The position numbers and the translations under genes were made by a program. A model generated the notes under the pieces. That model saw nothing but the letters and a program-made list of their open reading frames with translations. It was not told where the DNA came from and did no database searches. 64,000 nucleotides of DNA from a plasmid. Shown here piece by piece: positions 7,738 to 54,287 of this stretch (its first letter is position 1; each line of letters begins with the position of its first letter). The stretch lies in the sequence record NZ_KX443399.1; one strand, written 5' to 3'.

Positions 7738-7888
7738 CCGGGACGTGTCATCTGCGCAGGTCGCACACGGTTTCGGGATGTGTTGGCGGAGACGAAAATT
7801 GCCGAGCAACGAGAGCGTGTCTCGATGCTCGGCAATGACCGATCAGGCGGGCCGGCTACCGGCCGGGACGTGTCATCTGCGCAGGTAG
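7738..7888. repeat. ~150-bp composite element copy A: 25-bp motif - imperfect long hairpin (ATTGCCGAGCA...TGCTCGGCAAT) - 25-bp motif
   Basis: near-identical to 8549-8702; the two copies flank lipoprotein gene 7899-8477. Confidence 0.8.
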
Positions 7889-8548: not shown

Positions 8549-8702
8549 CCGGGACGTGTCATCTGACCTGGTCGCGCAGGGTTTCGGGATGTGTTGGCGG
8601 AGACGAAAATTGCCGAGCAGCGAGAGTGTGTCTCGATGCTCGGCAATGGGCGATCAGGTGGGGCCGGCTACCGGCCGGGACGTGTCATGTGCACAGGTCA
8701 GG
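8549..8702. repeat. ~150-bp composite element copy B (motif-hairpin-motif)
   Basis: few mismatches vs 7738-7888. Confidence 0.8.
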
Positions 8703-18253: not shown

Positions 18254-19726
18254 TCAGTGCACGGCGCCCGCCATCAGATCGACAACGGTCGCGGCGAGGA
18301 CGGTCAACGCGTCGCGGGTCTCGCGCCGCAGCTGGGTCAACGCGATCCGCTCACCGGAGGCGAACAACGGCTCGAACGGCATCCGGCACACCGGTACCCG
18401 CAGCGCGGAGAAGGCGTCGACGGCCTCGGTCTCGACCATCGGCGCGTCCCCGGGCCCGTCGGTGATGACGACGACTGTGCGGGCGAGCACGTCCGGGCGG
18501 ACCGCGCCGATCGTGGCGAGGGTGCGCTGCGCGGCCACCGCGGCATCGCGGCGCAACGGCACCGGAACGACGACCGCATGCGCGGCGGTGATCGCCCACC
18601 GCCAACTCCCCGCCAGCGACGAGTTACCGGTGTCCGCGACCAACAGATCGCGGTGCCGGCCGATGATCGCCCCCAACGCTGCGGCGTCATCGAAGCTCAG
18701 CGACGTCTCGGCACCGGCCCTGCCCGCGACGACATCCGATCCGGACGGCTGACGAGTCAGGAACCGCGCCAGCGTGGCCGGGCGGACATCGGTGGCCGCG
18801 GGGTCGATCCCGGCGAGCAGGCTGACGACGTCCTGACCCTGCTCCGGCGGCACAGCGACGCGGTCGGCGAAGCTGCCGCCGACCTCACCGAGATCGAGGC
18901 ACGTGACCGTGGCGGGGCCGCGATACTCGGCCAGCGTCTCGGCCAGGCTGATCGACATCGGCGTCTTGCCCACGCCGCCCTTGACGTTCGCGAAGGTGAC
19001 CAGCGCACCCTCCGGCAGAGTGCGCGCGATCGCCTGCTGTGCACCGCGCAGCCGCATCTCGAGCGAGTCCGACTTCGGCGCCAGCTTCAGTCCGAGCATC
19101 GCGTTGATACGGCCGCGCACACCGAGCCGAGCCGGATCGCTCGACGCGGTGTTCGCCCGCGGCGCCGACAGCTGCGACAGCCCGTCCAGCGGCCCGGTGA
19201 TCGGGCCGGTGACCGGCTCGGCCGGCCGCTGCCCCACCGAAGGCGGTGTCGGGGCAGCGACCGGACGCGACACGGGCTGTGTGGGTACCGAGGCGGGCTG
19301 CGGGGGCACCGGACGCGGGACGGCCTGGGCAGGTGCCGGGGTGGGCGCCTGGACGGGCTGCGCGGGCCTCTCGTCGGTGATCCGCTCGGCCGAGACGACG
19401 ACCGGACCCGCAGGCGGCGCGGGCGTCGTCTCGGGGGCCGGTTCAGTCGCTGCGGGAGCGACGGCCGGCATCGGCGCGCTCGGGGTTCGGGTCTCGGCTT
19501 TCCCGTCCGGGGTCACCGTCAGAAAGCGCGAGTTCTCACCCTTGCGGTAGACGACCTCGACATCCGAGTCTTGGCCCTTGGCAACACCGGCCAGGAACTC
19601 GAACACGACGAACTCGAGGGACTTGGTTTCCGTCGCCTCCAGATCCATCGGCGGCACGTTGGCGTCCGCCAGGGTCGCGCGGGCAGTGGTATCGGAGGTG
19701 ACCTCGACATCAACGGTCGGCGTCAT
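18254..19726 (-). CDS. ParA/MinD/CpaE-like P-loop ATPase with N-terminal domain and Pro-rich linker (490 aa)
   Basis: deviant Walker A FANVKGGVGKTPMSISLAE. Confidence 0.75.
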   Translation of the reverse strand: MTPTVDVEVTSDTTARATLADANVPPMDLEATETKSLEFVVFEFLAGVAKGQDSDVEVVYRKGENSRFLTVTPDGKAETRTPSAPMPAVAPAATEPAPETTPAPPAGPVVVSAERITDERPAQPVQAPTPAPAQAVPRPVPPQPASVPTQPVSRPVAAPTPPSVGQRPAEPVTGPITGPLDGLSQLSAPRANTASSDPARLGVRGRINAMLGLKLAPKSDSLEMRLRGAQQAIARTLPEGALVTFANVKGGVGKTPMSISLAETLAEYRGPATVTCLDLGEVGGSFADRVAVPPEQGQDVVSLLAGIDPAATDVRPATLARFLTRQPSGSDVVAGRAGAETSLSFDDAAALGAIIGRHRDLLVADTGNSSLAGSWRWAITAAHAVVVPVPLRRDAAVAAQRTLATIGAVRPDVLARTVVVITDGPGDAPMVETEAVDAFSALRVPVCRMPFEPLFASGERIALTQLRRETRDALTVLAATVVDLMAGAVH

Positions 19727-20117: not shown

Positions 20118-22274
20118 TCAGGCCATCGCCGCGACGCGGTCGGCCTCTGGCAGGACGACGACGCCGATGGCGTCGAAGGTGATGCGGGTCTTCACGCGGC
20201 CGGAGCCGACAGTCAGGACGGTCTCGGTGACGTCGCCCTTGCCGTCGCGGCTCACGTCGACGGCGTCGACGGTGACGGGCACCAGCTCGCCGCTCTCGTC
20301 GTCGATCAAGACCGTCATGCCGGCCTCGACAGCGGAGGCGGGGATGACGTCGGGCAGGTCGTCGTCGACGGGCTCGGCAAACGGTGCCGCGACCTGGTCC
20401 ATGCCGGTGTCGGCGTCGTTGTCTTCGGGAGTCGTGGCGGCGCCGATGACGACCGGTTCGAGGGCGCTGCCGTGCTTGCGCGCATGCTTGGCGAGGGCGC
20501 GCTCGGATTCGATGAACTCGGCCAGCTCGCGCGAGTAGCAGGTGAACTGCGGCGCCTCGGCCGGGACGAGGCCGTCGATGATCGCCTTCTCGCTCTCGGA
20601 GAGCTGGTTCCACTTGTTCGGGTGCTTGTCGACGTTCGGGGTCCACCACATCTGCGCGTCGACCGGGTTGCCGTCGTCACCGAGCGCGACGCCGCGGCCC
20701 TTGACCGAGGTATCGACGGTGCGGCCGACGGTCGCGTCGCCCCAGAGCATCAGCGCGCCGTCCTGCGAGAGGTTGCCGAGCGAGATGCGGGTGCCGAAGT
20801 TGTCTCGCGCGTTGCCGGAGGCGCCACCGAACAGGCTGGCGTCGGGGCGCTGCACGCCGAGCAGCAGACGGATGCCGGCCGAACGGGCAAGCACCGCGAG
20901 GTCCGCCCACGCACCGAGCGGATCAAGCTGCGCGAGCTGCGCCTTGGACTCGTCATCGCCCGTCTTCGCCAGGCGCTGCCACTTGCCGGAGAGGATGAAG
21001 AACTCGTCGAGCACCGCGATCATCAGCGGCAGCTGCGAACCCTCGATCTTCATCTCGTGGATGTAGTTGTTGCGGGCCATCATTTCGCTGTGCAGAGCGC
21101 GCACGAACATCGCCGCACGCAGCGCGTCGTAGATGATCGCCCCGCACCCCGGGTAGCCCTCGAGGCCGTCGAGTTCGATCATCTTCGGATCGACGCCGAC
21201 GAACGGGATGCCGCGGCGCGCGGCCTCGGTCAGCAGCGTGCGGATCACCGATGTCTTACCGCCGCCGGTGGGGCCGACGATCAGGCAGTGCGGCTTGTTC
21301 GAGCTGGTCGACACGTCCCAGAACATGGTGCGGTCCGCGGCGGCCGTCGCGTAGGGAAGGTGGCGCAGATTCTCGTCGACCAGCTCCAGCGGGTGGTCCA
21401 CGCGGGTCGGCATCGGCGCGACCAGACGCATGATCAGGTAGCCCTTGTCCGGGAACCAGTCAGTGGTCCAGTTACGGCCCGACTCATGGGTGCCGGCCAG
21501 CGATGCGAGAGCTTCCTCGACCTTCGCCTGGAAACCGCTGGCACCAGCGTTCATCGACATCGTGAACGTGATCCGGTAACCGGTCTCGACACCGTTCTCG
21601 TCGACCGTCTCCACGGTGACCTTCGGGTCCTTGAAGATCGAGGTGTCGTCGATCGCCGCCTGGAGCACCTTCTGACGCTCGGAACGGGTGTCGACAGCAG
21701 GGGTTTCACGGGTGATGACGATGCGGTCGTGGTGCGCCTCGTGACGCACCTTGGTCTCCTGCTCACCGACCGGCGGGAACGCGGCCTCGATCGCGCGCGC
21801 GACCTCTTCGAACTGCTTGGGCCGGATCACCGTGCCTCGGTGCAGCTTGATCGTCGCGCGGCGGGGTGCGCGCCACCCGGGCGGGAACGAGATGGTCACC
21901 TTCTTCGGCAGATGCCCAGTGCCCTGACGGACCACCGATTCGAGCATCTGCGACCACTTGTGCAGGCGGTGCCGCACGACGTCGCCCGCGATCAACGCGG
22001 CCGCGACGACGATCAGCAGCACCCGGTAGCTGTGGAGCTTCGTCAACACGTCGACGACCGTCTCGTTGCCGGCCGCCACGTCCATCAGGCGCGGGGCGTA
22101 GACAGCGACACCGGCGGCGACGACGACGATCGGCGAGAGCGGGGTGAAGCGGCGGATGCGCGTCGGCCGGCCATCCTCACCGACGTTCTGGCCGCGACCG
22201 TCACCGGACTCACCGAAGATGTCGCGCCACGTCGCGACGATCCAGTCCTTGAGTGGGTCCTGATTTCCGCTCAC
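20118..22274 (-). CDS. FtsK/SpoIIIE-family DNA translocase (TraB/TcpA-like conjugative coupling protein)
   Basis: N-terminal TM region; Walker A LIVGPTGGGKTSVIRTL; LLLGVQRPDASLFGG... motor motifs. Confidence 0.9.
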   Translation of the reverse strand: MSGNQDPLKDWIVATWRDIFGESGDGRGQNVGEDGRPTRIRRFTPLSPIVVVAAGVAVYAPRLMDVAAGNETVVDVLTKLHSYRVLLIVVAAALIAGDVVRHRLHKWSQMLESVVRQGTGHLPKKVTISFPPGWRAPRRATIKLHRGTVIRPKQFEEVARAIEAAFPPVGEQETKVRHEAHHDRIVITRETPAVDTRSERQKVLQAAIDDTSIFKDPKVTVETVDENGVETGYRITFTMSMNAGASGFQAKVEEALASLAGTHESGRNWTTDWFPDKGYLIMRLVAPMPTRVDHPLELVDENLRHLPYATAAADRTMFWDVSTSSNKPHCLIVGPTGGGKTSVIRTLLTEAARRGIPFVGVDPKMIELDGLEGYPGCGAIIYDALRAAMFVRALHSEMMARNNYIHEMKIEGSQLPLMIAVLDEFFILSGKWQRLAKTGDDESKAQLAQLDPLGAWADLAVLARSAGIRLLLGVQRPDASLFGGASGNARDNFGTRISLGNLSQDGALMLWGDATVGRTVDTSVKGRGVALGDDGNPVDAQMWWTPNVDKHPNKWNQLSESEKAIIDGLVPAEAPQFTCYSRELAEFIESERALAKHARKHGSALEPVVIGAATTPEDNDADTGMDQVAAPFAEPVDDDLPDVIPASAVEAGMTVLIDDESGELVPVTVDAVDVSRDGKGDVTETVLTVGSGRVKTRITFDAIGVVVLPEADRVAAMA

Positions 22275-22379
22275 CGCCTACGCCTTTCAATCGAACTGAG
22301 CTGTCCCCGACGCCGCCTGTGAAGGCGTCCTTTTGAACACTGGCAGGAAGTCGCGATTTTCCTCAACTGGGTCCCCCCT

Positions 22380-22900
22380 CCCCCGAGCGCGGAAAACCTC
22401 GATGGCGAACACCGCTCGTGCGCACAGCTTCCGGCGTTCACGAGCGCTCTTCCCGCACGCTCGATGGACCGTTCGCTGCGGCGATGCACGAGGGCTGTTT
22501 CGAGCGGCGCACAGACCGTTCGCGGAGCGCTACGCGAGCGGTGCACAGACCGTTCGCCGGAGGGCTACACGAGCGCTGTTTCGGGCGCTGTCAGGAGCGT
22601 TCACTCGGCGGCGTGTGAGCGCTGTTTCGAGCGGTGCGCGACCCGTTCGAGCGGGCGCTGCGCGCGTGCTGTTTCGGACGCTGTCGGGGCGCCCGCATGG
22701 GCGCTGTTTCGAGCGCTGTGCGGACCGTTTGACGGGGGCGGTGCGAACGCTGTTTCGGGCGGTGCTTCGACCGTTCCGATCGGCGCCGGTTGCGCGGCTT
22801 CCACGGGCGGTCGCGGGCGGCGGTCGGATCGGTGTTGCGAGCGTCTGAAACAGCGTCTGTGCGCGGCGGTGTCGACCGGTCGTTCGAGCGGCCCGCTGAG
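22380..22900. repeat. Dense degenerate direct/inverted repeats (GCGCTGTTTCGAGCG / GACCGTTCG units; AGCGCT palindromes) in non-coding DNA
   Basis: GCTGTTTCG x6, GACCGTTCG x6, (T)TCGAGCG x>=7 at irregular 28-84 bp spacing; not CRISPR-like. Confidence 0.6.
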
Positions 22901-22967
22901 CGCCCCTCATAGCGTTTGAAATGGGGGTTCCGAAATGCGTTGGCGCGGCGGCGTTTCTGGATGTACA

Positions 22968-22999
22968 CTCCCCCCCTAAGGACTTCGTCCGGGGGGGAG
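22968..22999. other. Perfect 9-bp GC hairpin CTCCCCCCC-N14-GGGGGGGAG; oriT/nic-site candidate
   Basis: isolated strong IR in long non-coding region between T4CP gene and T4SS operon. Confidence 0.35.
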
Positions 23000-23607
23000 T
23001 GCCCCGGAGGGGGTGGGTGCGGGAGGCGCCTTTTCGAGCGCCCGAATCGACCGCCCAAATCAACCGCCGAATCCGGCGCCCTTTTTCACCGCTCATTCGA
23101 GCGCGTTTCTCAGACCTCCCAGCGCCCCTGTCTCAGGCGCCTTGCACGGGCGTGGCGAACGCGCTGTTTCGGCCGGCGCGCACGGCCCGGGCCGCGGCCC
23201 CTTTCACACACTGCGCCGAGCACCTTCCCCGCGGTGCTCGCACAGCCGCTGCCGCGAACGCTTCACACGCCGCCCGAAACGACACTCAGATAGGCGCACG
23301 CCGAGGCGCTCTCGCGCCTGCTGCCGTACGTAGTCGAACTGGGCTCCCATAGGGGCCATATGCGAGCCCATCGCCCATACGCCCCATAGAGCGGCACATG
23401 GGCCCCCGGAACCCGCACGCACATGCCTGCTCCAGCGGCTGCGAAACGGTGCCGCGGATCTTGCTCGCACACAGCGCCGTTGCCGAACGCCGAACGGCGG
23501 CTCTCTCAGCATCGAGCGCCACCGTCGTGCACCCCGATGCGAATCCAACTTCTGCGATACCTGATACCGCCGCCGACCTCGCCGGAAACAGCGTTCGGCA
23601 GGGGGGA

Positions 23608-23645
23608 CCCCGTTGAGGAAAAAAGCCGTTTCGACTTACGTTCGG
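23608..23645 (+). promoter_or_regulatory. Conserved element CCCCGTTGAGGAAAA..GCCG....ACGT upstream of T4SS operon (also at 46367-46405)
   Basis: 15/15 identical core plus gapped similarity, ~50-60 nt upstream of first ATG of two + operons. Confidence 0.35.
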
Positions 23646-23695
23646 CTGCATCCACTTTCAGGTGCACTGTCCGAACTCAGCGATGGAGCGTGCTC

Positions 23696-24001
23696 ATGTC
23701 CCTCACGTCAGCAGTTGCCGATCTGGCACTCACGACCCCGAACGTCGATGTGCTCGCGCAGTCGACCCAAGTCTCGACCGGCGGTCTGCGTGCGTGGATC
23801 GGCGACAACATCATCTTCACGATCCTCGCGCTGATCGCGTGCGCGGTTCTCGTCGGCGGTCTGCGCGGCAACCTGTCGAAGGTTTTCACCGTCGGTGGGC
23901 TTTCCCTCGTCGGTGTCGCGTTTTTCTCCCTCGCAAGCAGTGAGAGCGCCGCGACGGGCATCGGCAACTGGATTCTCGGCCTGTTCGGCGTCCAGGTCTG
24001 A
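23696..24001 (+). CDS. small 2-TM membrane protein (VirB2/pilin-like), 101 aa
   Basis: first gene of T4SS-like operon. Confidence 0.65.
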   Translation: MSLTSAVADLALTTPNVDVLAQSTQVSTGGLRAWIGDNIIFTILALIACAVLVGGLRGNLSKVFTVGGLSLVGVAFFSLASSESAATGIGNWILGLFGVQV

Positions 24002-24045: not shown

Positions 24046-24432
24046 GTGATCGACAACGACGACATGCTGCACCGAGTGGATCGGCACTACCTCGGACCGA
24101 CCGGGTTCACGCTGCCGTTCCGTATTCGCTACGCGGCACTCGGGCTCGGCGCGCTGCTGCTGGTGACCGTGTTCATCGTTGCGCGCGGCATCGTGCACGT
24201 GCCGCTCGGGTTCAAGTCGATCGTGGTGATGGTCATCGTCACCGTCGCGATCACCGCGCGGGTGACGAAGGTCGTCAACGCCGATCGCCCGATCCGGTCG
24301 GTGTTCAAAGCCGCGTGGAACGACCTCAACACCCCGCGCCCACCGAAGCCCGGGCAGACCGTCGTGCTTCGCATTCCTGCCACTGTCCGCGCGCACCGCG
24401 GCGCTCCGATCGAAGGTGAGTCCCACCGATGA
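24046..24432 (+). CDS. small membrane protein (VirB3-like), 128 aa
   Basis: GTG with GAGGGGA RBS; 4-bp overlap with VirB4 gene. Confidence 0.65.
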   Translation: MIDNDDMLHRVDRHYLGPTGFTLPFRIRYAALGLGALLLVTVFIVARGIVHVPLGFKSIVVMVIVTVAITARVTKVVNADRPIRSVFKAAWNDLNTPRPPKPGQTVVLRIPATVRAHRGAPIEGESHR

Positions 24433-27400
24433 CCATGCAGTCCGACAACGACATCGCTGCACTGTTCGATCCGAACTTCGACGAGCCCGAGCCGACCGTC
24501 GTGCCGCCGGGGGCGCTGCCGCCGTCGTGGGCCGCGGCGATGGCTGCGAATCGTGCCGCCTCCTCGCCGGTCGCACCGGCGCCGGCACTGCCGCAGGAGT
24601 TGGCGTGGTCGCAGGCCCCCGACCCTGCCTCGGTACCGCCTGTGATCGCTGCTGCGGAAGCGGCCGAGGAACCGGCCGGCACCGGCAAGCGGCGGAAGAA
24701 GAAGCGCGGCAAGCAGGCCGATCCGGATGCCGAGTTCACGCGGCAGGCGAAGGCCGCGCGCAAGCGCCGCGAGCGCGAGCGCAAGGCCGTGAGCCTGGAG
24801 CTGGTCGGCGTGGAGGGCAACGTCACCCGCACGCGCCGACAGTCCACCGCGTGGTTCGTCCAGCCGCCGGGCCCGTGGAACATGCGCCCGGTCGGCAAGC
24901 AGCGCCGCTACATCCAGAACGAGGGCCTGGTCGTGGCGAACCTCGCCGAAGCGGGCGTGACGGGGCTGCACCGGCGGCTGGTGCGCACGCCGTGGCCGGT
25001 GCGGCAGTGGGCGCAGAACCATGACGCGTGGGCCGAGCCGATCCCGGACGTGCCTGGGGCGCTGTCGTGGGCCGACTATCTGCGCGGGCAGCAGCACGCG
25101 ATGTTGTGGGGCAACCCGACTCAGAAGGGCCGCTACTGGGGCGTGGAGCTGCCTCCGCGCTCGATGCTGGCGCAGGGGCTCGATTGGGTCGGTCAGTGGC
25201 TGGTTCCGGTCGTCGACGCACCGCTGCTCGGCACGTTCGCGAAGCTGGTGCAGCGGTGGGCGCGGGATGCGTTCCTGAACGAGCAGAAGGCGATCGCCGA
25301 TCATCTCGCGACGATCGAGCGGCACCTGTCCGGGCAGGGCGTGAACGCCAAGCCCGCAAGCGCGGCGCAGATGGACTACTTGCTGCTGCGCTCCGCCTCG
25401 CTCGGGCTGCCGCTCGACGCGGACGGGGTGATCTCCGGAGCGGGCGACTGGGAGGAGTCCGACGTCGCCGCACTCGAAGACCTCACGAACCTCGAACTGA
25501 CGCCCGGCGATGGCTACACGACCGTGCGTGGTCAGGTCGGCGGACGGGACTACACCGGCTACGCGATCGTGCTCACGGTCGGGCGGATGGCGCCGCTGCC
25601 GATCCCGGAGAAGATGCTCCCCTGGCAGGTGATCGGCGACCCGTCCGGCGAACCGCTGGAGTGGTCCGAGCGCATCAAGCTCAAGACCAAGGGGCAGACG
25701 CTGCGCAGCCTGCGCCGCCTGACCGACCGGATCGAGTCGCAGTTCGACCACTACACCGTCGAGCACGACCAGGTCCCGCCGCAGGAGCTGGCCGAGCAGC
25801 ACGCGCTCGCCCAGCGCGCCATCTCCGACATCGAGGAAGACCATTCGGGTCTGTCCGTGCGCACCGAGGGCTGGTACCGGGTCCTCGTCGTCGGCTCGAC
25901 CCCGGAAGAGGCGAAGGAGAAAGTCGCGCTCCTCCAGGAGATGTACGCGCCGCGCATTCGCCTCGAACACGAGCACGGCCAGTACCAGCTGCTGCGCGAG
26001 TTCATCCCCGGTGAGCCGCTGGCGAACATCGCGCACTGCCGCCGCATGAGCGTCGAAGCCCTCTCAGCCGGCATGGCGGCCGTCGGTGACCGGATCGGTG
26101 ACCGCACCGGCGTCGTGATCGGCCAGACCGCGTCGATCGCACCCCGGCCGGCGGTGTGGGATCTGTTCGCCGCGCACGAGAAGAAGCACAAGTCCGGCCT
26201 GACCCCGATCGTCGCCGTCCCGGGTTCGGGCAAGACGTTCCTCGCGGGCGTGCTCGTCTACCAAGCAGTTCGGGCGGGTGCGTACGGCGTGGTGCTCGAC
26301 CCGTCCGGTCCGCTGAAGAAGCTCGCGCAGCTGCCCGAGTTCCGTGGCATCGCCGAAGTCCAGGCGCTGACCGGCCGGACGTCGCGGCCCGGTTCGCTCA
26401 ACCCGTACCGGGTGATCGTGGATCCGCGCCGCGACGATCCGGAGTACGACCCGACGAGCGCGGACTATGCCGACGACGCCGACCCGGTCGCGGCGGCGCA
26501 GTCGCAGTACGAGGCGGATCTGCGTGCCGCGGAGGCGGAGCGGATTTCGGTGGCGGTGTCGGTGCTGAAGATGATGCTGACCCCCGCGCGACTCGAGCAC
26601 CAGTGGACCGAGACGGTGCTCCAGACGGCGGCGAACACGGTCGGCGGCGGCCGCAACCACAACCTCAACGAGGTCCTGGCCGCCATCGCGTCGATCGGTG
26701 AGGGCGAGAACGAGACCAATGCCGATCTGATCTCGTGCGCACGGTCGATCCACCAGGACCTGTCGATGATGTCGCAGCTCGCCGAAGCGCGAGTGCTGTT
26801 CCCGGGCGAGGGCACCGTCGGCGACATCCCGGACGCCGAACGCAATGTGCGCCTGACGGTGCTGACGATGCCGGGCCTTCAGCTGCCCCCGGAGGGCACC
26901 GATCCGTCGCAGTGGACGCCGCAGCAGCGGATGGCCGGCCCGCTGATGCACATGGCCGCATGGCTGGCGAACCGTCTCGTCTACGAACTGCCCCGCTACG
27001 AGCGCAAGGTGCTCTTCCTCGACGAGAACAAGTACCTCGAGCAGACCGGTGCCGGCCGCACCCTGAACCTGCGGATCGCGCGTGACTCCCGCAAGTTCAA
27101 GGTCCGCGCGCTCGTCTGCTCGCAGCTGCCCGACGACTACCTCGGTGTCGATGGCACCGACGACAAGTCGGCACTGACGTACGAGGTGATCATCGGCGAT
27201 CTCGGTGGCAACGCTCACGCGATCGAGGGCGCGCTGAAGCTGCTGAACCTGCCGGCCGGTGAGGGCTACGAGGCCCTGCTCGCCGGTCTCGGCGGCGGCG
27301 GCGAGGACACCCTCGACGAGGACACCGACACCGAACACCTGGATCAGGCCCGCCGGTTCATCGTGAAGATGGCCGACGACATCGAGCTGATCCGCTCGGA

Positions 27401-27476
27401 CTGGACGCACTTCGTGCACCTGGCCCACGTGTTCGAGGCCCTGGACTCGCGCGCCACCCGCGGCGGTGCGGCATGA
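24429..27476 (+). CDS. VirB4/TrbE-like conjugative T4SS ATPase (1015 aa)
   Basis: Walker A VAVPGSGKTFLAGV; Walker B VLFLDENKYL; disordered Ala/Pro/Lys-rich N-terminus. Confidence 0.9.
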   Translation: MTMQSDNDIAALFDPNFDEPEPTVVPPGALPPSWAAAMAANRAASSPVAPAPALPQELAWSQAPDPASVPPVIAAAEAAEEPAGTGKRRKKKRGKQADPDAEFTRQAKAARKRRERERKAVSLELVGVEGNVTRTRRQSTAWFVQPPGPWNMRPVGKQRRYIQNEGLVVANLAEAGVTGLHRRLVRTPWPVRQWAQNHDAWAEPIPDVPGALSWADYLRGQQHAMLWGNPTQKGRYWGVELPPRSMLAQGLDWVGQWLVPVVDAPLLGTFAKLVQRWARDAFLNEQKAIADHLATIERHLSGQGVNAKPASAAQMDYLLLRSASLGLPLDADGVISGAGDWEESDVAALEDLTNLELTPGDGYTTVRGQVGGRDYTGYAIVLTVGRMAPLPIPEKMLPWQVIGDPSGEPLEWSERIKLKTKGQTLRSLRRLTDRIESQFDHYTVEHDQVPPQELAEQHALAQRAISDIEEDHSGLSVRTEGWYRVLVVGSTPEEAKEKVALLQEMYAPRIRLEHEHGQYQLLREFIPGEPLANIAHCRRMSVEALSAGMAAVGDRIGDRTGVVIGQTASIAPRPAVWDLFAAHEKKHKSGLTPIVAVPGSGKTFLAGVLVYQAVRAGAYGVVLDPSGPLKKLAQLPEFRGIAEVQALTGRTSRPGSLNPYRVIVDPRRDDPEYDPTSADYADDADPVAAAQSQYEADLRAAEAERISVAVSVLKMMLTPARLEHQWTETVLQTAANTVGGGRNHNLNEVLAAIASIGEGENETNADLISCARSIHQDLSMMSQLAEARVLFPGEGTVGDIPDAERNVRLTVLTMPGLQLPPEGTDPSQWTPQQRMAGPLMHMAAWLANRLVYELPRYERKVLFLDENKYLEQTGAGRTLNLRIARDSRKFKVRALVCSQLPDDYLGVDGTDDKSALTYEVIIGDLGGNAHAIEGALKLLNLPAGEGYEALLAGLGGGGEDTLDEDTDTEHLDQARRFIVKMADDIELIRSDWTHFVHLAHVFEALDSRATRGGAA

Positions 27477-40942: not shown

Positions 40943-40956
40943 TTCCCATATGGGAA
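40943..40956. promoter_or_regulatory. 14-bp perfect palindrome TTCCCATATGGGAA upstream of parA (centromere/operator candidate)
   Basis: related CCCATATGGG palindrome plus ATATGGGATA half-sites at 42200-42250 just after parG-like gene. Confidence 0.45.
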
Positions 40957-41768: not shown

Positions 41769-42205
41769 TGAGTGGCATTCCTGAACCCTCCCGGCCCGCA
41801 CCGCGCAGCTCGCGCCGCAACGTGTTCGCGCAAGCCGCGGAGTCGAGCAAGACGGAGGCCGAGGCCCCCGCAACGACGCAACAGCCCGCCGCAACGCCGG
41901 CGCCCGTTGCGCAACAGTCCGACGCAACGCCGGCGCCCGTTGCGCAACGCCCCGCGGCCCCGGCAACGAGGAGGAAGCGGAGGGAGGACAAGCGGAAGGC
42001 TGAAACGACGGACATCCTGCTGTCGCTCGATGTGGACCTGAAGGAACGCATGGTCGCAACGCTCGAGCACACCCGACCGCGCACCGGCATCACCTCGCAG
42101 CAGATGTTCATCCGGGTTGCGATTGAGCAGCTGTGCGCGCGTCTGGAAGCGGACTACAACCGCGGTGAGGCCTTCCCGCAGCCCGCTGAGGACATCACCC
42201 TATAG
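41768..42205 (+). CDS. ParG/RHH-like partition adaptor with disordered Ala/Pro-rich N-terminus (145 aa)
   Basis: ATGA overlap with parA; C-terminal DILLSLDVDLKERMVATLE ribbon-helix-helix. Confidence 0.7.
   Translation: MSGIPEPSRPAPRSSRRNVFAQAAESSKTEAEAPATTQQPAATPAPVAQQSDATPAPVAQRPAAPATRRKRREDKRKAETTDILLSLDVDLKERMVATLEHTRPRTGITSQQMFIRVAIEQLCARLEADYNRGEAFPQPAEDITL
41865..41950. repeat. Array of GCAACG hexamers incl. two 25-bp direct repeats GCAACGCCGGCGCCCGTTGCGCAAC and palindrome CGTTGCGCAACG inside parG-like coding sequence
   Basis: uses rare GTT (Val) and CAA (Gln) codons, suggesting DNA-level constraint. Confidence 0.6.
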
Positions 42206-42250
42206 CCCATATGGGATATAGGGGCTATAGGTGCAAATATGGGATACAGC
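42200..42250. promoter_or_regulatory. CTATAGCCCATATGGGATATAGGGGCTATAG inverted repeat + ATATGGGATACAG half-site downstream of par genes
   Basis: shares CCCATATGGG core with site at 40943. Confidence 0.45.
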
Positions 42251-42392
42251 CACCGATGCAACGCCCCTACCAGCACCGTTGCGTGATTACACAACGCGGA
42301 ACGCGTGAAAAGCCAAGATGCAATGAGGCCCCACCGGCTGGTACCCGGCAGGGCCTCGGCGACCGGGACAACCCTGGAAGGAACCCCGATCA

Positions 42393-46222: not shown

Positions 46223-46366
46223 GCCGCCTACCTCGGACCACCTGACCAGCCCCGCAAGGCACGGTCAGGTGGTCTGAGTCGTCTCGCACCGAAAAACCTG
46301 CGCGCAGATAGTTCTCGCTGTTCACGGCACCTCGAAGGCCCCTAATACCCCGGACACCCCGTTGAG

Positions 46367-46405
46367 GAAAATCGCCGAAATGGGTGAACGTAAGGACCTG
46401 TGTCC
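46367..46405 (+). promoter_or_regulatory. Second copy of CCCCGTTGAGGAAAA... upstream element
   Basis: see 23608-23645. Confidence 0.35.
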
Positions 46406-46426
46406 CAACCGGTAATCGAGGTGCCC

Positions 46427-48415
46427 ATGCCAGTCAGACGTCCGAGGACCCGCCGAGCCGTCGCGCTGATCGCCACTGCGACAGTGGCCGGCGGGTGTGT
46501 CGCGCTCACCGCCCCCGCGATCGCGGGCGCGGCACCGACCAGCTGCACGGCGACGTTCAACCTGTTCATCCCCGGCACTTGGGAGACCAGTGAGGACGCC
46601 GATCCCAGCCAGCCGGTGGGCATGCTCAAACCCATCGCGGACGCACTGAAGGCCGAGCATGGTCGCGCAGCGGAGGTCTACACGCTGCCGTACATGGCCC
46701 GGGCATTCGACAACGGACACACCTACGCCGACAGCAAGGCCGATGCCCTCGAGCGGGCCGAGCAGGTGCTGTCGAAGGTCGCGAACTCCTGCCCGAGTAC
46801 GAAGTTCACGATCAACGGCTACTCACAAGGCGCCGACGCCGCCGGGGACCTCGCCTCAGCGATCGGCAACGGCAAGGGACCCGTCGAAGCCAGCCGCGTG
46901 CTCGCGGTCGGTCTGCTGGCCGATCCGGGGGCCGGAACGAAGGGCGCAGCGACTGTCGGGCCGCGTACCTCGGGCACCGGTATCGCCGATCCGCGGCCGC
47001 AGGGCATGGGCAAACTGTCCGGTCGCGTCGCGTCGATCTGCGACCCAGGCGATCTGTACTGCTCGATCGAGAAGGGATCGAGCCCGCTGCTCGGCTCGCT
47101 CGGCTCGATCCTGAGCAAGAGCCCCAGCACGCTCACCTCAGGTGAAACCGCCGGTGGCAACAGCCAACTCGCCAGCGCCCTGACCTCCGACTTCACCGGC
47201 GCCGACCTGCCGGCCCTCGGGTCGAACGTGGCCACCCTCGGACAGCAGCTGTCCGCCCCGGACGTCGACATCAAGCAGGTCGCGACGACCGCGTCGTCGA
47301 TCGCGAAGACCCTCGCGCCGCTGACGGACCTGCTCGACTCCGGCGCCGCGAACCCCGCGGCGAACGGCCAGCTCGCCGCCGCACCGGCCGGCACCGCGGA
47401 GCGCAACGCCTCCGAAGTCCTCACCAAGGCGCAGGAATCCGACCTCACCAGCGCACTCGACACCGCGACCAGACTCGCCAACACCGCCAACAAGCTCTCC
47501 GGCGGTGACCCGCTGCGGCTGCCGTCGACATCGCCGGAGGTCCAGACCCTGGCGAACGCCGCGAACTCACTCGGCGGCCAGATCGCGCCCGTCGCATCAA
47601 CCCCCGCCGACGCGCTCACCTCGGCCACCAGCGTGCTCTCGGTACTCAAGCCGACCGTGGTGGTCAACCAGATCCTCAACGTCACCACCGGTGTGACCTC
47701 GCTCGATATGCCCGGCATCCTGAACAACCTGAACCAGTTGCCGCAGAGGATCGTCGCCGCCGACGCCCGCGGTGCGCACCAGATCGCAGGAGAACTGAAC
47801 AACCAGTTCTCGCCGCTGGTGAAGATGGCCGCCGCTGTCGACCTGAAGTGGGTCTCGCAGGTGCTCGCGATCATCCCGGACCCGTCCGGCGCCACCCAGA
47901 TCGCGGCGCTCGTCGCGTCGATCCTGGCCAACGTTGACATCATCCGTCTGGCCAACATCGTCGGCGAGATCCAGGAGATTGCTTGGGCCGCAATCGAGAA
48001 GCTGGTACCCCCTCCCGGCCAGCTGCCCGACCCGCTCGGTGCCGCAGGCGAAATGGGTCGGCTGATCCCGGTCGGCGCGGACCTCGCGTCCGTGGCGGTG
48101 AACATGCTCTCGGGCAAGGCCACCAAGACCTCTCCGGAACTGCTGGGCAAGCAAGCAAAGTCCGTCTCGACCAGCATCACCACCCAGGCAGAGAGCCTGG
48201 ACCTGCCCAAGCTGTCGAACTCGCTGACCACCCTGGCCAAGTCCCCGGGCGCCGAAGACCTCGCGTCGCTGGTCAACGAAGGACTCGGCGCCGCAAGTTT
48301 CTTCACCTCCGGCGCCCACACCAACTACAACGACCTCGTCGTCGACAACGCCGGCCGCAACGCCATCCAGTGGCTCTCGGACTGGCTCAACCTTCAGATC
48401 GGACGTGCCGCATGA
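46427..48415 (+). CDS. secreted cutinase-like serine esterase domain fused to long Ala/Leu/Ser-rich C-terminal region (~662 aa)
   Basis: signal peptide; TINGYSQGA nucleophile elbow (cutinase GYSQG); alt. GTG start at ~46400. Confidence 0.75.
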   Translation: MPVRRPRTRRAVALIATATVAGGCVALTAPAIAGAAPTSCTATFNLFIPGTWETSEDADPSQPVGMLKPIADALKAEHGRAAEVYTLPYMARAFDNGHTYADSKADALERAEQVLSKVANSCPSTKFTINGYSQGADAAGDLASAIGNGKGPVEASRVLAVGLLADPGAGTKGAATVGPRTSGTGIADPRPQGMGKLSGRVASICDPGDLYCSIEKGSSPLLGSLGSILSKSPSTLTSGETAGGNSQLASALTSDFTGADLPALGSNVATLGQQLSAPDVDIKQVATTASSIAKTLAPLTDLLDSGAANPAANGQLAAAPAGTAERNASEVLTKAQESDLTSALDTATRLANTANKLSGGDPLRLPSTSPEVQTLANAANSLGGQIAPVASTPADALTSATSVLSVLKPTVVVNQILNVTTGVTSLDMPGILNNLNQLPQRIVAADARGAHQIAGELNNQFSPLVKMAAAVDLKWVSQVLAIIPDPSGATQIAALVASILANVDIIRLANIVGEIQEIAWAAIEKLVPPPGQLPDPLGAAGEMGRLIPVGADLASVAVNMLSGKATKTSPELLGKQAKSVSTSITTQAESLDLPKLSNSLTTLAKSPGAEDLASLVNEGLGAASFFTSGAHTNYNDLVVDNAGRNAIQWLSDWLNLQIGRAA

Positions 48416-50444: not shown

Positions 50445-50706
50445 GATGCGTTCTCCTCTGTGAAGGGGATCGCGGACCGCCACGGATCGCGACAGTCCTT
50501 CCCCCTCTTCTGGCGTGGGAGGGGAAAAAGCCCAGTGCGCCCCCGAAAATGAGCCACCTCGACGATTGCGCCGCGCCACCACCCGGTTGTCACTTAGCAA
50601 GCACAGCTTGTAAGGTGGACCCATTGGAAGCGATCTGCCCCGCAGTCCGCGGGTGCCGGCAGCAGGCCAGATCAGAAATGGCCGCGAGAAACAGGGGGTG
50701 AACAGG

Positions 50707-52974
50707 ATGAACGACACGTCCCGCGACGCAATCGTCCTCGCGCTGCCTCTGCGTTGGCCCGCTGACCGCGATGCCTTGGCGCGCACCCACATCGGTGGAG
50801 GGGACGTGTCGTCTTCCCAGTACGATGCCCCTATGTGTCGCTCGAAAGCTCACGGAACTGGCCGCCGCTGCCCCGGTTGTGGCAGCTACGGGGCCGCCGC
50901 GAAGGCCAACGCGAACCGCCGGCTCGGTCGCGAGGCCCGGAAGAAGGTCGTCGACCACCTCAAGGAACAGGGGCTGGTCGAGTCCGCCGCCGCCATCCAG
51001 GCGGCGCCGCCGAGCGTGCTCCAGGAGTTCATGGAAGGACTCGGCATCGACCCCGAGATCCTCGGCAAGACCCCGATGCCGAGCACCCACGCGAACCCGC
51101 CCAGCGCGAAACTACTGATCGCGCAGGCGAAAGCGGAGCGCGAGAAGCTGGCCGGCCCGAAGATCACCCCGGCCCAGGCCGCTCTCGATGAGGCCGAAGC
51201 GAACGCCGTCAAGGCTGACGCCGAGGCGGAGGAGGCAACCAAGACCGCCAAGAGGCTCCGGGCGCGGGTCACCACAGCCAAGCGGAAACTCAAGGAGGGC
51301 ACAGGCACCGAAGAGACCGTCGCGGAGAAGCAGAAGGACTTCGACGAGGCCAAGGCCGCCGCGTTCGACGCGCAGCGCCGCCAGTCCGAGGCCCACGACG
51401 ACCTCGCGGCCGCGAAGTTCGGCATGCGAGAGGACATGGCTGACGAAGACCGTGACGCCTACTACGCCTCGCTGTCCGACGACGACGTCGCCGCGATCAG
51501 CCGGTCCCTGAACCGCAAGTACGCGGACGAAGCAACCGAGGCGCTGGCCGAGGGGCCAATCGTCTCGCCGGCCGGAATCGAGCGCGACACCAGCGTCTAC
51601 AAGTCGGGGAAGATCCCGATGGAAACAGGATCGGGTGTCGAGGAGGCCGAGGGCCGCTACCTCGACGGCGGTACCGCGATCGTGCGCCGGGGGTCCGGGG
51701 ATTTCGTTGTCCTCCAGCGCAAGGGCGACGCCTACCACCCGGTGGCTGTAGCGAACGGTAAGCATGACGCCCTCGCCAAGGCCAACCGCATCCCGATCCT
51801 GGTTGAGCCCGAACCGCTGCCGGCCAACGCCACTGAGATGCAGAAGCAGGCGCACTCGGTGAAGGGAGATGCGCTTCTCGCGGTCGCCAGCGAAGCGGCA
51901 GCCGGCAAGGCGTCCACCACAGCCGCGCAGCAGAAGGTCATCAACGACGAGCTGGCCGGCGCGCACGAGAAGATGACCGACTCGATCGGCGCCGGCCCGG
52001 TCCGCGCCGACATCTACGACGGCACCAAGCGTCACCAGAAGCGCATGCGCGAGCTGGCCGCTGTGCAGGCCGGCGAGAAGGCCCGCGCCGACGCACTCGC
52101 GGCCGGCAAGACGAAGGTGCAGGCCGATCAGGCGTACGAGAGGGCCCACCGCCGCGCACTCGGCACACCGACCCGCGGCGGCGGCGTGATCCCGCACTTC
52201 GAGCACAAGATCCCGCCGGAGAGCCTGGGTGCCGAAAAGCACGCGTCCCTGCACCGCAGCGGTATCCGCGCGTTCGGCAAGGAAACCGCCGACGACTACG
52301 CGGTGATCCATCAGCGGGCCGGCGACCTGAAAGCGTGGGGATTCTCGGTCAGCGGGCAGAAGGTGCACACCTCCGACCTGTCGAAGCTGACGGCGACGAA
52401 CTCGGCATTCGTGAAGAAGGTGCTCGACTCTTCCGAGCGCAGCGCGCTGACGACCTACACCGGCGGCAGCTACCACTCGATCAACGCAGCGATCACCGGG
52501 CGCGATCCGAACCCGGCCGCGTCGACCAAGTCAATCGTCAGTGGCATCGAGTCGGCGTTCGACAAGTTCAACGAGCACAACCCGAACAACGAGCCGATGA
52601 CCGTCATGCGCGGCACCCGGGTGCCCAGTGGCTGGAAGGGCACCGCGGCCGAGTACATCGACCAGGCGTTCACCGTCGGCTCGAAGGTGCAGATCGGCAA
52701 AGTCACCTCCACGACGACCCGCCAGGCCACCGCGCAGGGCTTCACCGGGCACCCGCCGTACATGATGGTCATCCGCACCCGCAATGGCCTTCCGGTGAAG
52801 TCGATCTCGATGTACAAGAGCGAAGACGAGGTCATCGTCCCCACCGGCACCGAGCTGCGCTGCGTCAAGGTCGACCACAAGGGCATCAACGGAGTCCCGA
52901 CCGTGTGGCTCGTCGCCGAAGACCTGGTCGCCGAGGCCGACGGGTCCCCGTCGCCACTGAAGTCCGTCGCATAG
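50707..52974 (+). CDS. R-S-E class ADP-ribosyltransferase (C3/VIP2/SpvB-like ART domain) at C-terminus of large protein with N-terminal zinc-ribbon and long Ala/Glu/Lys-rich helical region; alt. start ~50833
   Basis: YTGGSYHSINAAITG (Y-x-x-x-x-Y-x-x-IN), MRGTRV (Arg), TSTTT (STS), SEDEVIVPTGTEL (E-x-E) in canonical order; CPGCGSYG near N-terminus. Confidence 0.8.
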   Translation: MNDTSRDAIVLALPLRWPADRDALARTHIGGGDVSSSQYDAPMCRSKAHGTGRRCPGCGSYGAAAKANANRRLGREARKKVVDHLKEQGLVESAAAIQAAPPSVLQEFMEGLGIDPEILGKTPMPSTHANPPSAKLLIAQAKAEREKLAGPKITPAQAALDEAEANAVKADAEAEEATKTAKRLRARVTTAKRKLKEGTGTEETVAEKQKDFDEAKAAAFDAQRRQSEAHDDLAAAKFGMREDMADEDRDAYYASLSDDDVAAISRSLNRKYADEATEALAEGPIVSPAGIERDTSVYKSGKIPMETGSGVEEAEGRYLDGGTAIVRRGSGDFVVLQRKGDAYHPVAVANGKHDALAKANRIPILVEPEPLPANATEMQKQAHSVKGDALLAVASEAAAGKASTTAAQQKVINDELAGAHEKMTDSIGAGPVRADIYDGTKRHQKRMRELAAVQAGEKARADALAAGKTKVQADQAYERAHRRALGTPTRGGGVIPHFEHKIPPESLGAEKHASLHRSGIRAFGKETADDYAVIHQRAGDLKAWGFSVSGQKVHTSDLSKLTATNSAFVKKVLDSSERSALTTYTGGSYHSINAAITGRDPNPAASTKSIVSGIESAFDKFNEHNPNNEPMTVMRGTRVPSGWKGTAAEYIDQAFTVGSKVQIGKVTSTTTRQATAQGFTGHPPYMMVIRTRNGLPVKSISMYKSEDEVIVPTGTELRCVKVDHKGINGVPTVWLVAEDLVAEADGSPSPLKSVA

Positions 52975-53034
52975 CCTGAAAAATGTACATCTAGCTGGGG
53001 ATACGACACGTCCCCTTATCGAGAGAAGGCCACC

Positions 53035-53208
53035 ATGAGCGGCAAACTGAGCCAGGACCAACTCGACGACATCCGTGCCCATCTCAAGCAGGGAATGTCG
53101 CCCAGGGAAGTCGCGGACTACTACGGCCGCGTCGCAGACCTCGACCTCATCGAGATCGCACGTATCCGCACTGCCGCATACGAAATCGAGCAAGAGGAGC
53201 AAGCGTGA
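53035..53208 (+). CDS. small Hin/resolvase-like HTH protein (57 aa)
   Basis: AGAAGG RBS; LSQDQLDDIRAHLKQGMSPREVADYYG; below track cutoff; 4-bp overlap with ARH gene. Confidence 0.5.
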   Translation: MSGKLSQDQLDDIRAHLKQGMSPREVADYYGRVADLDLIEIARIRTAAYEIEQEEQA

Positions 53209-54287
53209 CAGCACCGGCAACCAACGACGCCGCCCAGCGCGCCCGCTACGGCAACGCCCTGAGCGGTCTCGCGGCCGGTGACGCCTGGGGCTACCAAGTC
53301 GAGTTCACCTCGTACGCATCCATGCCGGCCTACCCCGTGGCCGCGCCGGCAGGGGAGTGGATCGTCAGCGACGACACCCAGATGACCCTCGCGCTGCACG
53401 ACGCGCTCGCCGAGGTCACCGACTTCGACGACATCCCCGCGGTCACCGACGCGATCGTCCGCCACTTCGTCCTATGGCAGGTCGACCCCGACAACAACCG
53501 GGCACCGGGTCGCGCGTGCATGGGCTCGCTGCACCGGCTGCGTGCCGGCGCCCGCTGGTACGACAAAGACGGCGCGCGTGAATCCGCCGGCTGCGGCGCC
53601 GTGATGCGTCTGGCACCAGCTGCTTTCGCGCCGGAACCGTACTGGCCCGGGCTGACCGCGCTCCAGGCCGTCATCACCCACAAGCACCCGCGCGCCATCG
53701 TGCCCGCGCTGCTGCTAGCCGACGCGATCCGGCACGCCCCCGACCGCGGCGGCCTGCTCCTCGAGCACGCCCTCGCCGAGGCCGACCGGATCTACGCAGG
53801 CACCAGCGACTGGCTGACCGATCCGTACCTCGCTGACGTCCTCGCCCCCTACCGAGGGGACGTGTCATCTGTACTGGTAGACGGCCTGAATGATGATGTC
53901 GTGGACCTACTGAACGTGGCCGCTGAGGCCCGGGACCGGCTCGACCAGCTTGACCCCGCCGACTTCGGTGACCCGTGTGCCGGCATCGGTCAGGGCTGGG
54001 AGTCCGCCAGCGCGATCGCTCTCGGCCTGCTGGCCGCGGACCTCGCGACGTCCCAGGGTGGAACAGACACAGCACCTTTGACCGGGCCCGAAGCGCTGGC
54101 GTGGGCGGCCACCAGCAACGGCGACTCCGATTCCATCGCGTGCATCGCCGGAGCGGTCATCGGCGCCGCGTACCCAGCGCCGGACTACTGGAGCCTGTCG
54201 GGCCTGACGCCTCGGTTCGAACCCCGCTACGCCACCGAGATCGCCGCGGCCGCCGGTCAACTGCCCGGGGCGTCGTCGGCAGAGTGA
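53205..54287 (+). CDS. ADP-ribosylglycohydrolase (ARH/DraG family)
   Basis: LAAGDAWGYQVEF... signature N-terminus, Asp-rich metal-site segments; contains an in-frame 25-bp motif copy (GDVSSVL). Confidence 0.85.
   Translation: MTAPATNDAAQRARYGNALSGLAAGDAWGYQVEFTSYASMPAYPVAAPAGEWIVSDDTQMTLALHDALAEVTDFDDIPAVTDAIVRHFVLWQVDPDNNRAPGRACMGSLHRLRAGARWYDKDGARESAGCGAVMRLAPAAFAPEPYWPGLTALQAVITHKHPRAIVPALLLADAIRHAPDRGGLLLEHALAEADRIYAGTSDWLTDPYLADVLAPYRGDVSSVLVDGLNDDVVDLLNVAAEARDRLDQLDPADFGDPCAGIGQGWESASAIALGLLAADLATSQGGTDTAPLTGPEALAWAATSNGDSDSIACIAGAVIGAAYPAPDYWSLSGLTPRFEPRYATEIAAAAGQLPGASSAE

Follow-up and report, generated by a model that had tools for sequence, protein, structure and literature searches.

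A 64,000-nt stretch of plasmid DNA (sequence record NZ_KX443399.1; the window) was identified as a pVAPN-type linear virulence plasmid of Prescottella (Rhodococcus) equi. Two divergent sets of conjugation genes are separated in it by a non-coding spacer of ~1.4 kb (22275-23695), and this spacer appears to be the strongest candidate for the start site of plasmid transfer. We tentatively propose that it is the cis-acting transfer and control hub of a conjugation module that consists of an FtsK-like motor and a type IV secretion system (T4SS). At its centre lies a 220-bp core under selection, which contains a promoter-like site and two adjoining hairpins and is kept from Rhodococcus to Nocardia and Gordonia. 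The core bears on the question of whether transfer is single-stranded, from an origin of transfer (oriT), or double-stranded, from a clt locus as in Streptomyces. R. equi, which also infects people, is adapted to ruminants by the virulence island on pVAPN, while relatives of this plasmid carry catabolic islands in environmental rhodococci.

A non-coding spacer with a conserved core

The region 22250-23720 is 98.6% identical to pVAPN94-27 (Prescottella equi) and to the pVAPN plasmid of a second human isolate; the bovine plasmid pVAPN1572 matches only partially. The left border of the spacer is a gene with an FtsK/SpoIIIE domain (20118-22274, minus strand), and the right border is the gene of a 101-aa membrane protein (23696-24001, plus strand), the first of a VirB4-like operon. 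The replicon has a GC content of 67%, and the flanking genes exhibit a strong third-position GC bias. Frame-specific GC content is flat between ~22280 and ~23690 (maximum minus minimum 0.02-0.24, compared to 0.3-0.68 in the flanking genes). The 12 fetched plasmid records with an intact module contain no gene annotation in the spacer, with one exception: a hypothetical 40-aa open reading frame (ORF) in a 2014 GenBank record of R. opacus PD630 plasmid 3, which is missing from the RefSeq record of the same strain. Furthermore, pVAPN94-27 has a 2-nt deletion at ~23086 that disrupts every long ORF across that point, and the spacers of relatives vary by indels of 13-nt units. On these grounds a hidden protein-coding gene was rejected. 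The initial annotation of this DNA had seen no credible ORF in the gap, which is borne out, and had suspected a cis-acting site next to the translocase gene. Indeed, the data support a cis-acting, protein-binding type of locus linked to the FtsK-like gene and the T4SS operon rather than decayed coding DNA.

About 40 related loci were compared. Distant BLASTN searches revealed homologous spacers of 1.0-1.4 kb at the same place in many Rhodococcus linear plasmids, including pRHL3, pROB02, pDK1, pYLL1, pRWAY02 and the PD630 plasmids. Another 26 genome loci, with the spacer in the same position, came from a protein-guided scan, and relatives from Nocardia, Gordonia and two metagenomes (loci L044 and L049) were then included. 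In an alignment of 12 plasmids, three conserved blocks are separated by fast-evolving sequence. The central island, block B (22897-23118, plus strand, ~220 bp), is the most conserved of them. Two pVAPN variants are 95-96% identical in the interval 22901-23100 and ~95% identical in the FtsK gene, whereas most of the surrounding spacer shows 22-75% identity with many gaps. This difference indicates that block B is under selection and supports a role as a transfer and control site.

Block B was detected by nhmmer once per locus, except in L033, a 2.2-kb contig that ends inside the FtsK-like gene and is devoid of upstream DNA. Both nhmmer and a covariance model place the single copy upstream of the FtsK-like gene in constant orientation (13 plasmids and the genome loci with upstream DNA). 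In Mycobacteriales-type loci with upstream DNA, the element always lies upstream of the FtsK/TcpA-like gene, mostly in the gap to a divergent T4SS operon; the gap is missing from a more distant relative, in which the genes are co-linear. The carriers of block B span replicon clusters 1307 and 313, and the relatives that retain it are typed MOBP or have no relaxase. The element is thus linked to the transfer module and not to replicon or relaxase type, in support of the proposed role.

Within block B, the promoter-like site P_C (22940-22969, rightward on the plus strand), which resembles a sigma-70 promoter, was identified in the alignment. It comprises TTGGCG (22940-22945), 18 nt and TACACT (22964-22969). 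In 27 Rhodococcus sequences GTTGGCG and TACACT are (near-)invariant at a spacing of 18 nt (17 nt in one locus) with variable sequence in between, and the Nocardia equivalent is TTGCCA-18 nt-TAAAAT. A strict consensus promoter scanner missed P_C. The -10 box is overlapped by the left arm of a hairpin. A perfect 9-bp GC hairpin had been reported at 22968-22999, and its coordinates are exact (CTCCCCCCC, 22968-22976; 14 nt; GGGGGGGAG, 22991-22999). It is part of an 11-bp stem, H1 (CACTCCCCCCC / GGGGGGGAGTG; 22966-23001, plus strand), with an inner GGAC-TTC-GTCC stem. A second hairpin, H2 (CCCC-GGA-GGGG; 23002-23012, plus strand), abuts H1 and emerged from the comparison of lineages. P_C, H2 and the 13-nt tandem repeats described below had been overlooked. 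The notion of H1 as a statistical outlier was discarded, as the window holds 44 inverted repeats with arms of 10 nt or more that are at most 30 nt apart. Since hairpins of such size are common in the plasmid, the importance of H1 follows from its conservation; it lies at the centre of the most conserved element. An Ssi/Frpo-like single-strand promoter was also considered and dropped, the -35 box lying outside any stem.

Pairing in H1 is perfect despite sequence change between lineages. The apical stem is GGAC/GTCC in pVAPN, GGGAC/GTCCC in locus L025 and GGCCC/GGGCC in the PD630 and erythropolis types, and in L024 a C-to-G change is met by the matching G-to-C change. In Nocardia (L042), H1 reads TAAAATCCCCC-AAC-GGGGGATTTTA, with TAnnnT still at the -10 position, and is followed by the H2 sequence CCCC-TCAA-GGGG. 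H1 is CAGAGCGGCGGC/GCCGCCGCTCTG in Gordonia (L043), GGCCAGCCCCC/GGGGGCTGGCC in L044 and a 17-bp stem in L049. Nearly all lineages have an H2 of C4-5/G4-5 with the plus-strand loops GGA, GAA, GTAA or TCAA; the exceptions are L020 (degenerate) and L049 (weak). To the left of H1, at a distance of 5-14 nt, almost every lineage carries the motif GC(A/G)AATTC. The covariance model, built from Rhodococcus sequences, recovered the Nocardia and L044 elements at about E = 1e-4 and that of L049 at E = 0.08. In the alignment fitted to this model, 97.2% of cells were paired and 9 of 16 pairs had changed on both sides, mainly through a few divergent sequences. None of 500 shuffles reached this level, and slid controls were 52-78% paired. 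Further support for the proposed role is therefore provided by the deep conservation of the H1/H2 structure with different stem sequences.

The genes on both sides of the spacer point to a T4SS of the Tcp type. Among solved structures, the FtsK-like protein is matched best, in sequence as well as in fold, by TcpA of pCW3 (Clostridium perfringens), followed by the FtsK motor, and many homologues are named 'type IV secretory system conjugative DNA transfer family protein' at NCBI. The right operon continues past the 101-aa gene with genes for a TcpE-like protein of 128 aa, a VirB4-type ATPase of 1015 aa (24429-27476), a membrane protein of 706 aa and a wall hydrolase with M23, SLT and NlpC/P60 domains. 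Among the domain matches, AAA_10 (VirB4-type) is clear and TcpF and TcpE are weak; a TcpC-domain gene was seen in the Gordonia relative. By predicted domain content, the module is a Tcp-like T4SS with a TcpA-type coupling protein. The VirB4/TcpF-like, TcpE-like and hydrolase genes, and the TcpC-domain gene in Gordonia, set it apart from a stand-alone Streptomyces TraB system. The TcpA/FtsK-like motor with these neighbours is a further argument for a transfer function of the spacer.

Two observations concern the distribution of the core. The R. opacus plasmid pRop44186_b (52 kb) contains a 2.8-kb module fragment centred on the spacer (L014, 4015-6809), in which block B is intact and the FtsK-like, TcpE-like and VirB4 genes are only fragments. 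A plasmid of similar size from another R. opacus strain (CP129000) also matches the core. We considered pRop44186_b as a natural 'oriT-only' mobilisable plasmid and set this aside: as a decayed module fragment it is suggestive and does not amount to evidence. A scan of viral contigs for the H1 stem gave two matches. One of them, at 98-132 of a 2.2-kb IMG/VR contig (L047; TACACTCCCCC-GTAATATTATATACT-GGGGGAGTG), was read and judged a coincidence, namely the origin hairpin of what looks like a small Rep-encoding circular single-stranded DNA virus.

Repeats and edge promoters of the spacer

The dense array of degenerate repeats noted in the gap proved to be real. The sequence GCTGTTTCG occurs seven times in the window, always inside the gap and on the plus strand, and TTCGAGCG nine times, with seven copies within the gap on the plus strand. 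The generalised 13-nt motif GCTNNTTCGNNCG has nine matches in the window, eight of which lie in the gap on the same strand; whole-window shuffles of the 64 kb gave 1.32 ± 1.25 matches and none of 100 reached nine. AGCGCT is present in 17 copies, five of them in the gap. The initial annotation had listed a single inverted copy. Inversion was confirmed, but near-copies on the minus strand with one mismatch each (GCTGTTTCA and GCTGTTTCC) are found in two places, at 22846-22854 and 23584-23592.

Most copies belong to a degenerate direct-repeat array on the plus strand (22440-22905) with the composite unit gCTGTTTCGaGCG-N7-GACCGTTCG, which a repeat search resolved into eight copies of ~33 nt at 22489-22905. 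In this left array GCTNNTTCGNNCG starts at 22494, 22575, 22621, 22668, 22703 and 22749, followed by the inverted near-copy at 22846-22854. By motif search, two right-hand copies were located at 23091-23103 and 23163-23175 (plus strand). Between the hairpins and these copies lie three 13-nt tandem repeats (CGAATCGACCGCC / CAAATCAACCGCC / GAATCCGGCGCC; 23034-23080, plus strand; Tandem Repeats Finder period 13, 3.2 copies). Their copy number varies from 1 to 4 and, like their sequence, depends on the lineage.

Across loci, GCTNNTTCGNNCG occurs 72 times in 61.9 kb of spacer and 10 times in 377 kb of flanks, a ~44-fold higher density to which near-duplicate loci contribute. The copies recur at particular offsets on either side of the hairpins, nearly always on the same strand: the right-hand ones stand at about +125 to +130 and +180 to +200 in relatives and at +194 and +266 in the pVAPN lineage, and Nocardia has GCTGTTTCGGCCG to the right of the hairpins. 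One copy in pRHL3-type relatives is a perfect 14-bp palindrome (TTCGAGCGCTCGAA) inside block B. Enrichment in the spacer and recurring offsets make the repeats part of the element, which again supports its proposed role. Most Rhodococcus lineages hold one to four copies per locus, with one or two on the left, compared to six left and two right copies in pVAPN; the dense left array is therefore an expansion in the pVAPN lineage. In arrangement, the flanking GCTNNTTCGNNCG copies and the 13-nt tandem repeats have the character of sites for accessory DNA-binding proteins.

The two edges of the spacer are joined by a 26-nt inverted repeat, I3 (92% identity; arms 22357-22382 and 23597-23622), which had been overlooked. 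Each arm points outward with promoter geometry: GGGGGGACCCnG-TTGAGG, 18 nt, and CAGTGT (leftward) or TACGTT (rightward). The leftward promoter P_L with the shared box GGGGGGACCCAGTTGAGG occupies 22337-22382 on the minus strand (-35 TTGAGG as the reverse complement of 22361-22366, 18 nt, CAGTGT as the reverse complement of 22337-22342) and is conserved in the 12-plasmid alignment. On the plus strand, the rightward promoter P_R with the shared box GGGGGGACCCCGTTGAGG occupies 23597-23642 (-35 at 23613-23618, 18 nt, TACGTT at 23637-23642), and its ACC..TTG and TTAcGtTC are invariant in the 12 plasmids. From their geometry, we infer that P_L and P_R are co-regulated promoters of the transfer genes. 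In Nocardia and L044, twin boxes of another sequence are found at the spacer edges.

The shared box was found three times in the window, at P_L (facing the FtsK-like operon), at P_R (facing the T4SS operon) and at 46357, and exactly three times in 49 kb of pRHL3, ahead of the same three units. The near-identical box GGGGGGACCCnGTTGAGG-18 nt-nAnnnT in front of each unit suggests that the three are switched together, so that the twin-promoter box would delimit a small putative transfer regulon. That twin promoter boxes precede the same three units in the window and in pRHL3 is likewise in favour of a control hub. A miniature inverted-repeat transposable element, or another insertion bounded by I3, was rejected on account of the outward arms with -35/-10 geometry and the solitary third copy; in addition, pRHL3 has the box at the same three locations and the layout is common to every relative. 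The third box (GGACACCCCGTTGAGGAAAA, 46336-46400) precedes a gene for a 671-aa cutinase-family protein (46400-48415). In pRHL3 (L045, 33088-33182) the box stands ahead of the orthologous cutinase gene, which there belongs to the gene row on the FtsK side. The shared box suggests that a mycolate or cell-wall esterase of the cutinase family is co-regulated with conjugation.

Some further features of the window were recorded. A stem-loop GACGCC-N9-GGCGTC (22309-22329, minus strand; terminator-like on the plus strand) would belong to the leader presumed at the 5' end of the FtsK-like transcript; the relatives in R. pseudokoreensis and PD630 have other, still complementary arms (CACCACT...AGTGATG). 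The FtsK operon also encodes a ParA-like protein of 490 aa (18254-19726) with a Pro/Ala-rich, apparently disordered N-terminal half of ~230 aa followed by an ATPase domain. A 17-nt inverted repeat (ATTGCCGAGCA[A/G]CGAGA-5 nt-TCTCGATGCTCGGCAAT) occurs in two copies ~810 bp apart (7798-7836 and 8609-8647). At 50653-54287, a gene for a 773-aa ADP-ribosyltransferase (exoenzyme/ART domains) is followed by an ADP-ribosylglycohydrolase-family gene, a pair that could be a toxin and its antidote or an effector pair on the backbone.

Candidate roles of the spacer

How might such a hub work? The H1/H2 core would be the place that defines the transferred DNA: a relaxase missed by current models would nick it, or the FtsK-like motor would use it for loading. 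The hub would be oriT-like if an unrecognised nuclease nicks it and clt-like if the motor loads on double-stranded DNA. The flanking repeats, of which the left set would have been amplified from one or two to six copies in pVAPN, may organise a complex for recruitment or one similar to a relaxosome. A possible participant is the ParA-like ATPase encoded in the FtsK operon, comparable to VirC1 at overdrive and StbB at the R388 stbDRs. Protein binding or hairpin extrusion at H1 could block P_C, and transcription would then be linked to DNA processing, as it is in other oriT regions. In the full-text literature covered, to which the original pVAPN paper (Valero-Rello 2015) did not belong, the spacer, the hairpins and the twin-promoter box are not described.

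Several points speak against a transfer hub. Neither a nick site nor a cognate relaxase was identified, and the module-side genes scanned with Pfam and NCBIfam contain no relaxase domain. The covariation was read from a structure-fitted alignment, its double changes come mainly from 3-4 divergent sequences, and co-evolution with a dimeric DNA-binding protein can also give compensatory changes in a palindrome. Hairpins of the size of H1 are frequent in this GC-rich plasmid. The invariant -35/-10 hexamers argue that at least part of the core is just a promoter, and the core as a whole could be one that is combined with an operator palindrome. Finally, an internal nick on a linear, protein-capped plasmid sends one arm only, which makes a classical oriT mechanistically awkward, a problem raised for Micrococcus linear plasmids (PMC11707576).

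The argument from the hexamers can be extended to the whole spacer, which would then serve purely in transcriptional control. P_C would drive a small RNA or leader of ~115 nt (from ~22977 to the T-run at 23088), whose structured 5' end (inner hairpin, G-run and H2) regulates the transfer operons, while a repressor or activator binds the repeats as operators. We consider this possible, though somewhat doubtful. The promoter TTGGCG-18 nt-TACACT is invariant in Rhodococcus and the -10 consensus is retained in Nocardia (TAAAAT), H2 has plus-strand loops of the GNA or GNRA type in nearly all lineages, and the twin promoters point to elaborate regulation. A terminator-like stem, CGCCG-AATC-CGGCG followed by CCCTTTTTC (23065-23088, plus strand; a scanner match), is a possible 3' end of the P_C transcript. 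However, this stem is retained in the pVAPN and pRHL3-type lineages and not in the PD630 or erythropolis types, in which the sequence past H2 is unconserved. A start 6-9 nt past TACACT would exclude the left arm of H1 from the RNA, although both arms co-vary, and L044, L049 and Gordonia are without the promoter hexamers, yet H1 and H2 persist. The variable number of 13-nt repeats fits DNA sites better than a folded RNA. With ~110-390 nt between P_L and the left array, and ~440-520 nt between P_R and the right copies, the distances are unusual for operators. No known RNA family (Rfam 15) matched at gathering score; two matches were at chance level (E = 0.85 and 0.89).

Returning to the transfer hub, one form of it does without nicking. 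In Mycobacteriales, conjugation may follow a route that needs no relaxase and starts with loading at the H1/H2 core, a specific proposal that we regard as unlikely. A TcpA/FtsK-type motor on a T4SS-like envelope channel would recognise the extruded hairpin or cruciform, flanked by repeats for accessory proteins, and then pump the plasmid out, possibly as double-stranded DNA. If true, this would be a hybrid of Streptomyces TraB/clt transfer and classical T4SS conjugation and would explain the movement of large linear Rhodococcus plasmids, including the ruminant virulence plasmid of R. equi.

A plain Streptomyces-type clt locus, at which the FtsK-like protein as a TraB-like double-stranded DNA translocase reads the direct repeats (or G-rich 8-mers in H1/H2) with no nicking, is improbable as well. 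It would agree with the published description: in reviews the pVAPN gene is called a TraB translocase and transfer is regarded as independent of a relaxase and of a T4SS (PMC6852188, PMC5434932). The module analysed here looks like a Tcp-type T4SS instead. No backbone relaxase was found among the proteins scanned, the motor domain is equally close to FtsK on double-stranded DNA and to TcpA, the repeats are polar and confined to one strand, and double-strand transfer removes the problem of the linear plasmid. The sequence GACCCCGGA in H2 resembles the TraB recognition sequence (TRS) GACCCGGA of pSVH1; the resemblance may be due to chance.

The predicted structure of the FtsK-like protein, in contrast, does not fit this explanation. 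The initial annotation had considered a Streptomyces-style system read by a C-terminal winged helix-turn-helix (wHTH) of the translocase. An AlphaFold model from a 39-sequence alignment (mean pLDDT 81.5) has a membrane-anchored N-terminus, a motor domain, a disordered linker and a C-terminal domain (residues 641-712) that is predicted as five to six beta strands with no helices and no winged helix. Pfam finds FtsK_SpoIIIE and AAA_16 only, and thus no FtsK-gamma domain, and the NCBIfam model plasmid_TraB scores 21.6 bits, far below its cutoff of 800. A defining feature of such a system is thus missing from the prediction, and TcpA is the closest solved structure. Moreover, the gene is located within a full VirB4/TcpE/TcpC/hydrolase module, which is missing from stand-alone TraB systems, the repeat unit is 13 nt compared to 8 bp, and the site precedes the gene instead of lying at or beyond its 3' end.

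Could the spacer be a centromere? The arrays and a cluster of CCCATA / CCATATG / CACATGGG half-sites (23346-23395, plus strand; found by motif search and previously overlooked) would be bound by an adaptor of the ParA-like ATPase, or by a plasmid ParB-like protein, and position the plasmid or the transfer apparatus. This is very unlikely. Direct-repeat arrays are typical of centromeres, the ParA-like gene of the FtsK operon accompanies the module throughout Rhodococcus, and equivalent CCCATA-type clusters exist in pYLL1, R85, pDK1 and pRWAY02 (12-plasmid alignment). Palindromes of the CCCATATGGG type, to which the half-sites in the spacer are related, flank the operon of parA and a 145-aa protein at 40945-40954 and 42198-42260 (42206) (CCCTATAGCCCATATGGGATATAGGGGCTATAGG...AAATATGGGATAC) and are candidate centromeres or operators there. 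On the other hand, a centromere would leave the double hairpin and P_C unexplained, the plasmid has a separate rep-parA module, and the large array is limited to the pVAPN lineage.

The only relaxase in the window is a MobF/TrwC protein (gene at 54675-58145). It is encoded 31 kb from the spacer at the edge of the vap island, close to an Lrp/AsnC regulator, Lsr2 and vapO, and is 97.5% identical over residues 82-1143 to TraA of the unrelated, circular pVAPA/B plasmids. Since it is near-identical to that TraA and sits at the island edge, MobF looks imported and not like the partner of the backbone module; it was probably brought in with the pathogenicity island and is not part of the linear backbone. 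Its presence conflicts with descriptions of pVAPN as simply 'relaxase-independent'. Rep is encoded at ~38.2-39.8 kb, so that Rep and parA lie ~15 kb to the right of the spacer. A switch in GC skew was not used as a sign of an origin, as the cumulative maximum near 22-30 kb tracks the change in gene orientation. The earlier suggestion of a MobF (TrwC-like) oriT or an iteron-type replication origin, to which a relaxase gene in the window and repeats with a hairpin give a superficial likeness, is highly implausible: MobF is distant and matches plasmids that lack the spacer, the element is conserved in plasmids without MobF and does not co-vary with replicon type, rep is not adjacent, and the spacer (GC content 0.66-0.68) contains no AT-rich dip for unwinding.

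Comparison with known transfer sites

In systems with an FtsK/TcpA-type coupling protein, oriT adjoins the coupling-protein gene. The order is tcpK-oriT-tcpM-tcpA in pCW3, and oriT is located between orf20 and orf21 in Tn916 and between orfK and orfJ in ICESt3. The spacer resembles these sites as a non-coding region that adjoins an FtsK-like coupling-protein gene, here between divergent transfer operons as is often the case for oriT, and it has inverted repeats with flanking short repeats suited to accessory proteins. The motor is of the same type, TcpA being its best structural match, and its neighbours correspond to VirB4/TcpF, TcpE, wall hydrolases and, in the Gordonia relative, TcpC. In contrast to these systems, no TcpM, MOBT or other relaxase was recognised among the module-side proteins, with MobF 31 kb away. 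The spacer is also longer (1.1-1.4 kb compared to 150-400 bp), lies on a linear replicon and has no sequence similarity to the three sites. Should the spacer serve in transfer, it would represent the cis site of a Tcp-like system on linear plasmids of actinobacteria, with an FtsK-type coupling protein and without a recognisable relaxase.

With the TraB/clt systems of Streptomyces, the locus shares an FtsK-family motor next to non-coding, polar short direct repeats, an actinobacterial host and the lack of an apparent cognate relaxase. Those systems have an 8-bp TRS read by a wHTH, whereas here the C-terminus is all-beta, the TraB model is unmatched, VirB4 and other T4SS proteins are present and the repeat has 13 nt. 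The eight same-strand copies stand at the 5' end of the gene, so that unit length and position both differ from described clt loci, and the centre is occupied by a conserved double hairpin with a promoter, which clt loci are not known to have.

The oriT/stbDR region of R388 and the overdrive/VirC1 system of Ti plasmids are proteobacterial, with known relaxases of the MOBF or MOBQ type and mapped nick sites. There is no sequence relationship to the spacer. The likeness is one of layout: an intergenic hub between divergent operons for transfer or stability, with an inverted repeat, direct-repeat arrays, promoters and a ParA-like ATPase.

RP4-type oriT regions have divergent promoters that overlap the relaxosome site. 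On the minus strand of the spacer, ~8 nt past the hairpin, a conserved motif of single-stranded type (GAATTGC, or ATCCAG in relatives) stands in the usual hairpin-then-nick geometry; a nick there is hypothetical, and the likeness of ATCCAG to the MOBP core ATCCTG may be due to chance and is not seen in several lineages. As in RP4, the conserved inverted repeat, with its compensatory changes, overlaps a promoter element, and a DNA-processing complex bound to it could autoregulate transcription.

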